A stretch of DNA of 64,000 nt. Origin: Bacteroidales bacterium. Its GTDB lineage: Bacteria; Bacteroidota; Bacteroidia; Bacteroidales; P3. Positions 3,501 through 64,000 of this stretch are shown in pieces. A program made the position numbers and the translations under genes. The notes beneath the pieces are model-generated. The model saw only the letters and a list, made by a program, of their open reading frames with translations. It searched no databases and was not told where the DNA came from. Location: positions 114,889-178,888 of the forward strand of contig JAFVBC010000008.1 in the NCBI GenBank assembly GCA_017480185.1, in the 5' to 3' direction. Within the stretch, counting starts at the first letter, position 1. Each line of letters opens with the position of its first letter.

Positions 3501-3818
3501 CTACATCAGCCCGAGTTCAACCTTTGCGTCGTCGCTCATGCGGTCGGTGCTCCATGGTGGGTCGAACGTCAGCTGCACGTCTACGCTTTTCACCTCGTTG
3601 ATATAACCTATCATCTGTTTCACTTCCATAAAGAGGTATTCGCTCTCGGGACAATCGGGGGCGGTCATTGTCATCAGCACGCGCACGTTGTACTCGTCGT
3701 CAATGGCAATGTCGTACACCAGTCCGAGGTCGTATATGTTGACTGGTATCTCGGGGTCGTAAATCGAGCGCAGGCAGTTCACCACTGCGTCGTTAATCAT
3801 CTCTTTTGTTATGGTCAT
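3501..3818 (-). CDS. DUF59/MIP18-family Fe-S assembly protein (SufT-like)
   Basis: 105 aa containing ...DPEIPVNIYDLGLVYDI..., typical of DUF59. Its start overlaps the upstream SufE stop in an ATGA arrangement. Confidence 0.75.
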   Translation of the reverse strand: MTITKEMINDAVVNCLRSIYDPEIPVNIYDLGLVYDIAIDDEYNVRVLMTMTAPDCPESEYLFMEVKQMIGYINEVKSVDVQLTFDPPWSTDRMSDDAKVELGLM

Positions 3819-5433: not shown

Positions 5434-5511
5434 TGCGGACAATCACCGCAAAGTTACTCTTTTTTCGCAAACGCCTATTGCTATCTGTTTTGGGGCACAT
5501 CATGTAGGCTG

Positions 5512-5613
5512 CATGTAGGGGGCAAGTAAGGCCGTTCTTCAGTTGTTCTTCAGTCAACGACTGAAGAACAACTGAAGAACGACTGAAGAAATGCCTTAGT
5601 TGATCCCTACTTG
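5512..5613. repeat. Intergenic nested palindromic repeat, copy A; right arm degenerate
   Basis: catgtaggg-ggCAAGTAAGGCCGTTCTTCAGttGTTCTTCAGTCAACGACTGAAGAAcaACTGAAGAACGACTGAAGAAatgccttagttgat-ccctacttg. The same element recurs at 28925..29026 and 41464..41545. Confidence 0.6.
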
Positions 5614-27769: not shown

Positions 27770-28789
27770 TTACAGGTCGAGCAATTGCTGGTTGCCCCCT
27801 TTGAATTTGCCCAAGTGGCGGTAGGCAGCTTCGGTGGCTTCGCGCCCTCGTGGGGTGCGCATCAGGTAGCCCTCTTGAATCAAGTAGGGCTCGTATACCT
27901 CTTCCACCGTGCCTGCGTCTTCGCCCACGGCGGTGGCTATAGTGCCCACACCCACTGGGCCACCCTTGAATTTTTCGATGATGGTACTCAATATGCGAAT
28001 GTCCATCTCGTCAAGTCCGTTGCGATCTACGTTAAGGGCTTGCAGTGCATAGCGAGCAATGTCGAGGGTGATGGTGCCATCGCCTTTCACCTGGGCAAAG
28101 TCGCGCACCCGTCGCAGCAAGCGGTTGGCTATACGGGGGGTGCCACGACTGCGACGCGCTATCTCGATGGCGCTCTCGCCAGTTATCTTCACCCCCAGCA
28201 ATCCCGCCGAGCGGTTGACAATGGAGGTGAGCGTTGGGGCATCGTAGTATTCCAGCCGACAGTTTATGCCGAAGCGTGCTCGCAGAGGGGCGGTGAGCAT
28301 ACCACTACGAGTGGTGGCACCAATCAGTGTGAAAGGCTTCAGCCGCAGCTGTACACTGCGTGCCGCTGGGCCACTCTCTATCATGATGTCTATCCTAAAA
28401 TCCTCCATCGCCGAGTAGAGATACTCCTCCACCACTGGCGACAGACGATGAATCTCGTCAATGAAAAGCACATCGTTTTCGGCCAACGAGGTGAGCAATC
28501 CAGCCAAGTCGCCAGGCTTGTCGAGCACCGGCCCACTGGTGGTTTTAATGCTGACACCCAACTCGTTGGCAATGATGTTGCTCAACGTTGTCTTACCCAA
28601 TCCCGGCGGACCGTAAAGCAACACGTGGTCAAGGGGTTCGCCACGCTCTTTTGCTGCACTGACAAACACCTTTAGGTTCTCCACCACCTGGTGTTGACCA
28701 GCAAAACTGTCGAAGCCCGACGGACGCAACGCCCGTTCAATATCGCGTTCCTGCACACTGGTGTGGCTGGCATCTAAACTGTCGTTCAT
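27770..28789 (-). CDS. ruvB: Holliday junction branch-migration helicase RuvB
   Basis: 339 aa. Walker A is [20 protein letters not shown]. RuvB-specific N-, middle and winged-helix domains are collinear. Confidence 0.9.
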
Positions 28790-28924: not shown

Positions 28925-29026
28925 CAAGTAGGGCTCAAGTAAGGCCGTTCTTCAGTATTTCTTCAGTCAACGACTGAAGAAATACTGAAGAACGACTGAA
29001 GAACAGCCGAAGTTGATCCCTACATG
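28925..29026. repeat. Intergenic nested palindromic repeat, copy B; right arm degenerate
   Basis: caagtaggg-ctCAAGTAAGGCCGTTCTTCAGtaTTTCTTCAGTCAACGACTGAAGAAatACTGAAGAACGACTGAAGAAcagccgaagttgat-ccctacatg. Same family as 5512..5613 and 41464..41545. Confidence 0.6.
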
Positions 29027-29073
29027 ATGGTTAGTTTTTTTTTGCGTGGCTGTTTTTTTTTAGTGGACGTTTA

Positions 29074-29327
29074 CCCACCCCTAACCCCTCCGAGGAGGGG
29101 AAGAAAATGAGGGTCGCAGGTGTGCTATAAAAACCTCCCCTCCCAGGAGGGAAAGAGAATGAGGGTTAATCTCAGTCGGGGAAGAAGATGAGGGATGCAG
29201 GTGTGCTATAAAAAACCTCCCCTCCTGGGAGGGGATAAAGGGGTGGGGTAGATGAGTTAGTTTTCGAGTGTACTATGCTGTGTGATAACCCACCCCTAAC
29301 CCCTCCGAGGAGGGGAAGGAAATGGGG
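29074..29327. repeat. Cluster of GC-tract hairpin repeats (CCCCTCC-N4-GGAGGGG) containing a G-quadruplex motif
   Basis: Four hairpin units at about 29085, 29139, 29220 and 29300. Two near-identical direct repeats, cccacccctaacccctccgaggaggggaag and gcaggtgtgctataaaaa(a)cctcccctcc. A canonical PQS, GGGAGGGGATAAAGGGGTGGGG, lies at 29228-29249. No ORF is supported. The 80-aa ORF 29172..29414 is a repeat artefact. Confidence 0.55.
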
Positions 29328-29428
29328 ACTTCTCTTTCCGTCTACTTTTTCTTTGCTCTGATGCAATAAATCACAACTTTTCATCGTTACACCGCAAAAA
29401 CATATCTGCAACAAAACTCATTCCGAAA

Positions 29429-30268
29429 ATGAAACCTATCATTGTTGGAACCGACTTTTCCGAAGGATCGTACTTGGCTTTAGAACTGGCTGTTGATGTG
29501 GCCAATCGTATGCAAACCGGTATAGTGCTGGTGTGGGCTAAACGCGAAAAGAAATTGTTTAGCAACGACCAGTTGGATGTTATGACCAACCTGGCCAATG
29601 AGAAATTGCGCGAGCTGTGCGCTAAGTTTCGTCCTGCTATGCGATACGGTGAGATTAGCAGTATGATTGAAAACGGTCGAGTGTCGACGGTTATAAGTAA
29701 TTTGGTGAAACGTCTTGAGGCTCCGTTAGTAGTTGTGGGTACAAACGGTGCATCGGGTTTTGAAAAGTACTGGATGGGTAGTCAGGCTGTGCGCATAGTG
29801 CAAGATAGTCCGTGCCCAGTGCTAACCATCCGTCAGGGATATGACTTCCACAAGAAGTTGGAACGCATAGTGGTACCCATTCGTGTTAATGCCAACTCGC
29901 GTCAGAAAGTGGCTCCTGCTACAGGTGTGGCAAGAATATTTGGCTCATCGCTCCACATACTGGGACTGTATGACATGAAAGATCAGGAGACCTCTTTGCG
30001 CACGTTTGTACAGCAAAGTGAAGAATATGCACAACGGCATGGCGTTGAAGCTGTGAGTGTGGTTCGTCCCTACTCAAACTATTGCGACACACTGCTTGAG
30101 TATGCCGACGAAATATCGGCCGACATGTTGGTGGTGAATACCGAGCAAGACCGCATTATCTCGCAGATGTTTCTGGGTACCAATGCCCAGCAGGTGGTCA
30201 ACCGCTCGCAGATACCAGTGTTGAGCATACACCCTGCCGATTTCATCAACGTTGCTTCAAGGGTGTGA
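29429..30268 (+). CDS. Universal stress protein (tandem UspA domains)
   Basis: 279 aa with two Usp-like halves. N-terminus MKPIIVGTDFSEGSYLALELA. The ATP-binding glycine motif VVGTNGASGFEKYWMGS is present. Confidence 0.8.
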   Translation: MKPIIVGTDFSEGSYLALELAVDVANRMQTGIVLVWAKREKKLFSNDQLDVMTNLANEKLRELCAKFRPAMRYGEISSMIENGRVSTVISNLVKRLEAPLVVVGTNGASGFEKYWMGSQAVRIVQDSPCPVLTIRQGYDFHKKLERIVVPIRVNANSRQKVAPATGVARIFGSSLHILGLYDMKDQETSLRTFVQQSEEYAQRHGVEAVSVVRPYSNYCDTLLEYADEISADMLVVNTEQDRIISQMFLGTNAQQVVNRSQIPVLSIHPADFINVASRV

Positions 30269-41463: not shown

Positions 41464-41545
41464 TCAAGTAAGGCCGTTCTTCAGTCGTTCTTCAGTCAAC
41501 GACTGAAGAACAACTGAAGAACGACTGAAGAACGGCCTTACTTGA
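41464..41545. repeat. Intergenic nested palindromic repeat, copy C; near-perfect 82-bp palindrome
   Basis: TCAAGTAAGGCCGTTCTTCAGtcGTTCTTCAGTCAACGACTGAAGAACaaCTGAAGAACgaCTGAAGAACGGCCTTACTTGA. It has perfect 21-bp outer arms. Inner arms are 2x GTTCTTCAG and 3x CTGAAGAAC around a CAAC centre. Confidence 0.65.
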
Positions 41546-41672
41546 TACCTATTTGACACACTGCTGATGGTTACTTCCAACACCCTATTCGTAGTGGTAG
41601 AGTTGGGATGGGACAAAATCGAACGGCATCGCCCACACAATAATCCTTGCCGCTATCCGTTTTTGGTGAAAG

Positions 41673-63693: not shown

Positions 63694-64000
63694 CCCCACC
63701 CCTTTATCCCCTCCCAGGAGGGGAAGTTTTTACATTCCTCACAATCCTATGAGGCGTTTCCATACAATCCTATACTCCTGATAGGGCGTATTCTCACTTT
63801 CCCTCTCACTTGGTGAGGGCTCTTTCTCTAACACCTCCCCTCCTGGGAGGGGCTGGGGGTGGGGTGAAATATGGAGTGTAGGAGGGGTGTATCGCAAGTG
63901 AGTGCATACGGCGTTGCTGTTGTAGACCCACCCCTTAATCCCCTCCCAGGGAGGGGACGTTTTTTACATTCCTCACAATCTTGTGGTATGTTTCCATGCA
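63694..64000. repeat. Second cluster of CCCCTCC/GGAGGGG hairpin repeats with a G-quadruplex motif; runs off the window end
   Basis: A roughly 75-bp unit, ccacccctt(t/a)atcccctcccagg(g)agggga(a/c)gtttttt(t)acattcctcacaatc, occurs at 63694 and 63918. Between the two units lie CCTCCCCTCCTGGGAGGGG and a PQS GGGAGGGGCTGGGGGTGGGG (63846-63867). Begins about 65 bp upstream of the hydrolase start. Confidence 0.55.

Follow-up and report, generated by a model that had tools for sequence, protein, structure and literature searches.

The window, that is, the whole 64-kb stretch of DNA that was analysed, comes from an uncultured Bacteroidales MAG. In this window, ruvB (27770-28789, - strand) and the tandem-Usp gene usp (29429-30268, + strand) are divergent, and the gene coordinates bear out the arrangement given in the first-pass annotation. 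The gap between the two genes is 639 bp, in agreement with the earlier figure of about 640 bp, but it is not free of open reading frames as had been supposed, as an 80-codon ORF with a TTG start was found at 29172-29414 on the - strand. This ORF was rejected as a gene because it merely reads through the repeats.

Within 29073-29318, a single type of unit was found in three complete copies, with a fourth that is partial. About 30 nt long, it comprises an A-CCCACCCC box, a linker of 3-5 nt and the palindrome CCCCTCC-(2-3 nt)-GGAGGGG, the consensus of box, linker and hairpin being ACCCACCCC-N3-5-CCCCTCC-N2-3-GGAGGGG. This larger unit, common to the full copies, had been overlooked in the first-pass annotation, which described four 7-bp GC-only hairpins of the form CCCCTCC-N4-GGAGGGG. 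The pattern as written has no match in the window. Four hairpins were indeed located, as CCCCTC-N4-GAGGGG at 29085-29100, 29137-29152, 29219-29234 and 29300-29315, but each arm contains a T or an A and they are thus not GC-only. The corrected pattern has 6 matches in the window, compared with 0.02 expected from shuffles. Since the 7-nt arms have just 2 nt between them, the hairpin is physically a 6-bp stem with a 4-nt loop.

Unit A (29073-29103, + strand) is a full copy in the C-orientation and consists of A-CCCACCCC (29074-81), TAA, CCCCTCC (29085-91), GA, GGAGGGG (29094-29100) and AAG. Unit B (29135-29155, + strand) is partial, without the CCCACCCC box, and its hairpin CCCCTCC-CA-GGAGGGA (29137-29152) carries one arm mismatch; on the - strand a T-run comes next, so that unit B looks terminator-like on that strand. 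Unit C (29219-29248, - strand) is full and reads in the G-orientation on the + strand, CCCCTCC-TG-GGAGGGG-ATAAA-GGGGTGGGG; its hairpin is followed by T6 on the - strand and has a similar terminator-like look. A spacer of about 40 nt (29249-29288) separates it from unit D (29288-29318, + strand), a full copy in the C-orientation that shares 95% identity with unit A across 40 nt. Order and orientation across 29073-29318 are therefore +, (+), -, +, which is an alternating cluster, and about 110 bp of ordinary sequence lies between the last unit and the usp start codon. Both pairs of direct repeats reported earlier were recovered, at 29073-29112 / 29288-29327 (95%) and 29097-29147 / 29178-29228 (82%). 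The latter, a 51-nt direct repeat, is the form taken in the window by a variable-number module (29097-29228, + strand) made up of truncated unit copies and purine-rich GGGGAAGRARATGRGGG spacers. A CRISPR array was ruled out on account of the irregular unit-to-unit spacings (52, 82 and 81 nt), the mixed orientations and the fact that the spacers are themselves repeated.

Other repeats were observed beside the array. The T-rich segment 29028-29072, situated between a long palindrome and unit A, contains an 18-nt near-direct repeat, TTTTTTTTGCGTGGCTG / TTTTTTTTTAGTGGACG. The long palindrome itself (28925-29026) is a member of another family of dispersed repeats, with further palindromes, likewise about 100 nt long, at 5505-5612 and 41465-41552 in the window. 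The palindromes have a perfect 22-23-bp core, GACTGAAGAAnnACTGAAGAAC and its complement, 11-nt periodic ACTGAAGAAC sub-repeats and the flanks CAAGTAAGGCC / GGCCTTACTTG, with 8 matches found and 0 expected.

A second array of the unit was found upstream of a hydrolase gene, where units E, F and G (63694-63956) are oriented +, -, +. Unit E (63694-63723, + strand, C-orientation) reads CCCACCCC-TTTAT-CCCCTCC-CA-GGAGGGG, unit F (63837-63864, - strand, G-orientation) reads CCCCTCC-TG-GGAGGGG-CTG-GGGGTGGGG, and unit G (63926-63956, + strand, C-orientation) matches the unit as well, with a spacer of about 63 nt between F and G, again G-then-C. This array extends past the end of the window, as further alternating units were present in contigs L125 and L126 of other assemblies (+, -, +, -, + overall). 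In total, the 64-kb window contains 6 full unit copies at two intergenic loci.

The arrays differ between strains. A 114-nt tandem module occurs about once in the window, twice in contig L002 and at least 2.6 times in L003, and the ruvB-to-usp junction was confirmed in L002 together with its extra module. In L004, point changes disrupt one hairpin arm. Contigs from other samples that encode an identical Usp or hydrolase protein terminate inside one of the two arrays, and in contig L001, which encodes an identical RuvB, synteny stops at the long palindrome 28925-29026 with a different neighbour just past it. Relatives whose Usp is about 70% identical retain the usp/HI0933-like operon next to another neighbour gene, and no units were found in the approximately 120 bp upstream of their orthologous usp. 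The missing array in relatives, the strain variation and the change of neighbour indicate that the array is lineage-specific, length-unstable and located at a synteny break. The array at ruvB–usp behaves unlike a conserved regulator. In another species, the array flanking an identical DUF559 gene (see below) ranges from 90 to 298 nt with one to four hairpins; array length thus varies both at the window locus and around DUF559 elsewhere, indicating that instability is a general property of these arrays.

Distribution and contexts of the unit

The strict 22-nt motif of the unit was detected in at least 120 stretches of a one-genome-per-species collection (596 Gb), in more than 10 phyla as judged by record titles, whereas roughly one match was estimated to be expected by chance. 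The matches listed included Cyanobacteria (Okeania, Moorena, Nostoc and Trichodesmium), Bacteroidota (Pontibacter, Alistipes and many Bacteroidales), Verrucomicrobia, Planctomycetes, Nitrospirae, Acidobacteria, Clostridia, Ignavibacteriales, Calditrichales, Latescibacterota and more. The first-pass annotation would have put the units down to chance if unique to the two window loci and absent from relatives; they are instead widespread. Just about 30 nt are conserved and the flanks are unrelated between lineages; (A/G)A stands beside the box, and no consistent tag was found there. Conservation within the unit is confined to three blocks; linker and loop are free to vary and can differ even within a single cassette, from one end to the other. 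Variant unit types combine ACACACCCC with CCCCTCTC/GAGAGGGG or ACCCACCTC with CTCCTCC/GGAGGAG, and every one of them keeps its two hairpin arms complementary. As the motif is of low complexity, some of the matches may reflect convergence.

Units were arranged singly, as inverted pairs, as a 42-nt full palindrome, in tandem arrays, beside purine-rich short tandem repeats and in frame within ORFs. Insertions within ORFs were recorded, among others, in TnpB genes of Okeania and in an Eco57I-like enzyme, at two different sites in each case, and those in L017 and L026 showed no target-site duplication. In these two Okeania loci (L017 5049-5090; L026 1017-1060 and 1664-1705), TnpB (IS605 OrfB) genes carry the 42-nt palindrome CCCACCCC-CAT-CCCCTCC-TG-GGAGGGG-AGCAGA-GGGGTGGG in frame, and its position in the gene is not the same in both cases. 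Both insertions come after AAAAACCNNAA, with no visible target duplication.

Several features accompany the unit in particular genomes. In some units (L091 upstream of 1112; L241-L248 at about 3520-3570; L145; L206), the linker that joins hairpin and GGGGTGGG box holds a small second hairpin (CCTGTCCCGCTTCGGCGGGAGG and variants), these insertions being nested at the same spot in unrelated genomes. Purine-rich short tandem repeats regularly surround units, of the GACGAAGAG type, as a cyanobacterial heptamer or, in the window, as GGGGAAGRARATGRGGG; embedded units of this kind occur at L241-L248 2700-3000 and at Okeania/Moorena loci such as L007, L024 and L052, and the number of purine-rich repeats differs between strains too. 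In three Alistipes genomes (L031, L035 and L074), a GC hairpin and a conserved TTTRCAAATCYRA precede the unit and ACTT follows it, which is a genus-specific extended form of the element.

Quadruplex, RNA and terminator readings

The tract GGGAGGGGATAAAGGGGTGGGG had been singled out as a canonical G-quadruplex motif. It does fit that pattern, with four G-runs, each three or more long, and loops of 1, 5 and 1 nt; its position is 29227-29248, one base away from where it had been placed. The tract is unit C read on the + strand and spans the 3' hairpin arm, the linker and the box. Two of the four G-tracts make up this arm and are used by the competing hairpin. When the tract was folded in silico with the ViennaRNA quadruplex model, the minimum-energy fold contained no quadruplex. 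The quadruplex pattern is a by-product of the repeat-unit sequence. A tract with the canonical pattern at 208-237, GGGAGTGTCGGGTGTCGGTGGGGTTGGGGG, is unrelated to the unit.

A quadruplex/hairpin switch or structured 5' leader governing usp (or ruvB) could draw on two observations: the G3+ N1-7 pattern occurs once at 29227-29248 and three times at the second locus, and the predicted folding of the region is more stable than that of shuffled sequence (z = -4.1). We nevertheless regard it as very improbable, since the G-tracts are the arm and box of a repeat unit that recurs in unrelated settings, no quadruplex appears in the fold predicted for the tract, the 120 bp upstream of usp in relatives that share the operon contain no units, some 110 bp of ordinary sequence precede the usp start codon, and no Rfam match was obtained. 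For the window, a G-quadruplex regulator of usp no longer needs to be invoked.

Of the three identities first offered for the region, namely a regulatory element, a structured ncRNA or a small repeat element, just the last was supported. Scanning against Rfam, which covered the region, the whole window and five cassette loci, produced only sub-threshold, chance-level hits at the units and no family match for a structured ncRNA. The sole Rfam match at gathering score in the 64 kb was a tRNA gene (978-1052, - strand). The mini-ORFs MRVAGVL and MRDAGVL, each closed by a stop codon and lying behind a Shine-Dalgarno-like GGAGG, were rejected since the additional modules in L002 and L003 lack their ATG. 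Shine-Dalgarno sequences are rarely used by Bacteroidota, which also counted against them.

We consider it unlikely, too, that the units serve as terminators or insulators between divergent genes, halting read-through or antisense transcription. T5-T6 follows hairpins B and C on the - strand and units E and G on the + strand, seven overlapping terminator-like hits were obtained at hairpins B and C and one unrelated site (0.8 expected), and the downstream unit comes directly after the DUF559 stop codon. However, units A and D are without a T-run on both strands, as are most members of the unit family elsewhere, and units are also found in either orientation and inside ORFs. That relatives lack the array at the same site, and that its copy number varies, likewise argues against such a role.

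Association of the unit with DUF559 genes

All ORFs of the 120 listed motif loci were clustered, and DUF559 was sought by tblastn and HMM search. The largest shared cluster comprised ORFs containing, or flanking, a DUF559 domain, and DUF559 was the sole family directly adjoining units among these loci. TnpB appeared only as an insertion target, and the clustering yielded no transposase family common to the loci. A DUF559 gene was present in 8 of the 120 (about 7%), and in 6-7 of these 8 it was bracketed by units, G-orientation upstream and C-orientation downstream, the latter beginning 4-12 nt past the conserved protein end. The C-orientation unit overlaps or directly trails the 3' end of the gene in cassettes. 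A G-orientation copy upstream together with a C-orientation copy at the 3' end amounts to inverted terminal repeats of a small DUF559 cassette. The window units are identical in all 22 specified bases to units flanking DUF559 (L056, L070, L091, L112, L183, L185 and others). Neither the 64-kb window nor the strain contigs examined yielded a DUF559 ORF on tblastn and HMM search, and none of 29 viral stretches with the motif contained DUF559.

Two side observations concern the setting of the cassettes. In several Bacteroidales (L183, L185, L168, L056 and L091) the DUF559 cassette is at the same site, after a gene whose product ends in ...DWERE and before a gene that is ispG-like, as judged by eye from its translation. 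In L046 (1-3757), an ORF for an Eco57I-like type IIG enzyme runs stop-free through an entire cassette (units, gene, units) and stays open across another unit inserted farther along, the host frame being kept.

For a reciprocal test, 80 metagenome loci were chosen by the DUF559 protein alone, without the motif. The query protein was itself taken from a locus with the motif, the 80 loci are its best matches and they are not phylogenetically independent, so the result describes one DUF559 subfamily. In these loci 150 relaxed units were detected, against 0 in first-order Markov simulations, and 58 of the 80 had a unit within 400 nt of the gene. Orientation was strongly polar: within 100 nt upstream of DUF559, 32 units were '-' (G-orientation) and 1 was '+' (p = 8e-9), and within 60 nt downstream, 35 were '+' (C-orientation) and 1 was '-' (p = 1e-9). 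Upstream units lay a median of 48 nt from the protein match, downstream units a median of 6 nt. Unit density was estimated at about 1.8 per kb near the gene (111 hits) vs 0.076 per kb beyond 600 nt. Box type agreed between the left and right cassette ends in 32 of 33 cases (24 + 8 concordant, 1 discordant).

The cassette gene encodes a protein of about 130 aa belonging to Pfam DUF559 (E = 1e-32), with a Vsr-like PD-(D/E)XK fold, and the DUF559 profile matches PDB 3hrl. The subfamily comprises at least 7,724 sequence clusters at 90% identity in an independent protein database. Among the 120 best-matching database DUF559 proteins, 78 end in the tail KPTPxPSxEGN, which is the C-orientation unit translated in one fixed frame. 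Internal stop codons were present in 2 of the 80 DUF559 genes.

These findings bear on whether the units could be classical REP/REPIN elements mobilised by a RAYT (a Y1 HUH transposase) elsewhere in the genome, the DUF559 link being secondary. Short GC-rich palindromes that alternate and form inverted pairs and clusters are what BIMEs and REPINs look like, and RAYTs, being single-copy, would rarely be included in a sample of unit sites. Such an origin nevertheless appears unlikely. DUF559 was the only family beside the units in the ORF clustering, and the fixed position and orientation of units around it, together with the translated C-terminal tail, are hard to call secondary. Moreover, the unit is without the conserved GTAG or CGTC end tag that serves to classify REPs (PMC3733652).

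The history of individual cassettes was also examined. One DUF559 protein, followed in 10 places (of 24 contigs), had the same neighbour genes throughout and the flanking array alone varied, which indicates that this DUF559 copy has not been recently mobile. Two Bacteroidales MAGs, on the other hand, each contain both a cassette and a separate unit locus without a DUF559 gene within 8 kb.

The stable context of that one DUF559 locus would also suit units that are recognition sites for a host function, such as self-marks, recombination hot spots or inversion sites, with DUF559 as a host enzyme, and conserved blocks with a freely varying linker and loop do point to sequence-specific recognition. 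In a published screen (PMC9881135), 'DUF559 domain-containing protein' is enriched among predicted programmed-inversion targets, which again favours such sites and fits genes located between inverted repeats. We think a host function improbable all the same, as the array is missing from the orthologous usp site in relatives and strain-variable in copy number, units lie within ORFs, some DUF559 copies are pseudogenised and the taxonomic spread is patchy.

Proposed origin and comparison with known systems

The window contains two G-then-C pairs of the kind seen around DUF559 elsewhere, units C and D (29219-29248 / 29288-29318) and units F and G (63837-63864 / 63926-63956). As neither encloses a DUF559 gene, both arrays can be read as gene-less cassette ends with a BIME-like organisation. 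Adjacent-unit spacing gave no signature distinguishing such 'empty sites' from other pairs. We consider it reasonably probable that the region 29074-29327 is a BIME-like cluster of gene-less copies of DUF559-cassette ends in alternating orientation. The lack of a DUF559 gene in the window and in the strain contigs examined speaks against this reading, as does the small share of motif loci, about 7%, in which the gene is present. The hairpins between ruvB and usp are, then, probably gene-less copies of a selfish element and not a G-quadruplex regulator of usp.

The window copies would be non-autonomous or relic cassette ends, the pair of units C and D being a candidate 'empty' site. Units may spread by nuclease-triggered recombinational copying in a homing-like manner, or through some other action of DUF559 in trans. 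In the homing-like case, cleavage of an empty G-then-C site would be followed by repair for which the conserved units could provide short homology. Arrays might lengthen or shorten by slippage or unequal recombination between units, and effects on ruvB or usp would be incidental, although two copies resemble - strand terminators.

Whether the nuclease acts on the units and so drives their spread or maintenance is a more tentative matter, and we rate it as possible but somewhat doubtful. In its favour are the two Bacteroidales MAGs with both a cassette and a separate gene-less unit locus. The fixed context of one cassette and the lack of target-site duplication are points against it. To our knowledge, a PD-(D/E)XK nuclease alone is not a known transposase, which also counts against mobilisation. 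With similar reserve we suggest that unit and DUF559 gene may together form an undescribed small selfish element, in which a Vsr-fold nuclease of about 130 aa is bracketed by 30-nt inverted repeats and spreads or maintains gene-less units in trans across more than 10 phyla.

The unit sequences had no match in a full-text search of the literature, whose coverage lies mostly outside subscription papers such as Elhai et al. 2008. In the same search DUF559 was mentioned in body text only, never in a title or abstract, and the passages on DUF559 that were consulted make no mention of flanking repeats. DUF559 is a very large family without an established role, and the database label 'very-short-patch-repair endonuclease' carried by its members rests on similarity only. 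If the selfish-element proposal is true, this family gains a function and the system becomes an analogue of REP/RAYT with a different enzyme class. The fixed, polar association of DUF559 with the unit offers a concrete substrate for testing, and may account for a widespread class of intergenic and in-frame repeats. In addition, the arrays break metagenome assemblies and yield spurious ORFs and protein tails (KPTPxPSxEGN, FPSWEGLGVG), and together with the strain variation this makes them relevant to annotation and strain typing.

The elements described here are small palindromic repeats of the REP, BIME or MITE sort. Like the REP, BIME and REPIN sequences of E. coli and Pseudomonas, which are imperfect GC-rich palindromes of 20-40 nt and mostly extragenic, the unit of about 30 nt occurs singly, in inverted pairs and in clusters of alternating orientation; in both, a small nuclease gene is bracketed by inverted copies and copy number varies between strains. 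In contrast to REP/RAYT, the bracketed gene encodes a PD-(D/E)XK DUF559 nuclease and not a Y1 HUH transposase, the end tag is lacking, and units are also found in frame within ORFs. REP families are usually species- or genus-specific, whereas the three blocks of the unit are identical across phyla.

Similarities to MITEs such as Nezha, Correia/NEMIS and RUP were also apparent. These are gene-less doublets, about 100-180 bp in length and ending in inverted repeats of some 30 nt, that are mostly intergenic and disturb assembly, and the window has doublets with inverted unit ends at 29073-29248 (176 bp) and 63694-63864 (171 bp). Unlike in MITEs, no target-site duplication was seen and no parent IS with a DDE transposase was found, and just the ends of the doublets, not their interior, are conserved between loci. 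Rickettsia palindromic elements are very small palindromic repeats that lie in frame in protein-coding genes, are nested and have no known transposase. Small dispersed repeats of Nostocaceae, which Elhai and co-workers reportedly described in 2008, are said to be tiny palindromes that are likewise in frame in genes, nested and without a known transposase. Compared by description, both differ from the unit in being restricted to one lineage.

A parallel to the enzyme itself is the Vsr-like homing endonuclease I-Bth0305I (PDB 3r3p), whose catalytic domain is matched by the DUF559 profile (E = 2e-5), more weakly than 3hrl. I-Bth0305I resides in a phage group I intron, whereas the cassettes described here are free-standing with inverted repeats of hairpin and box, no intron or intein having been seen at them. 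It nonetheless sets a precedent for a Vsr-fold (EDxHD) nuclease acting as a selfish homing enzyme.
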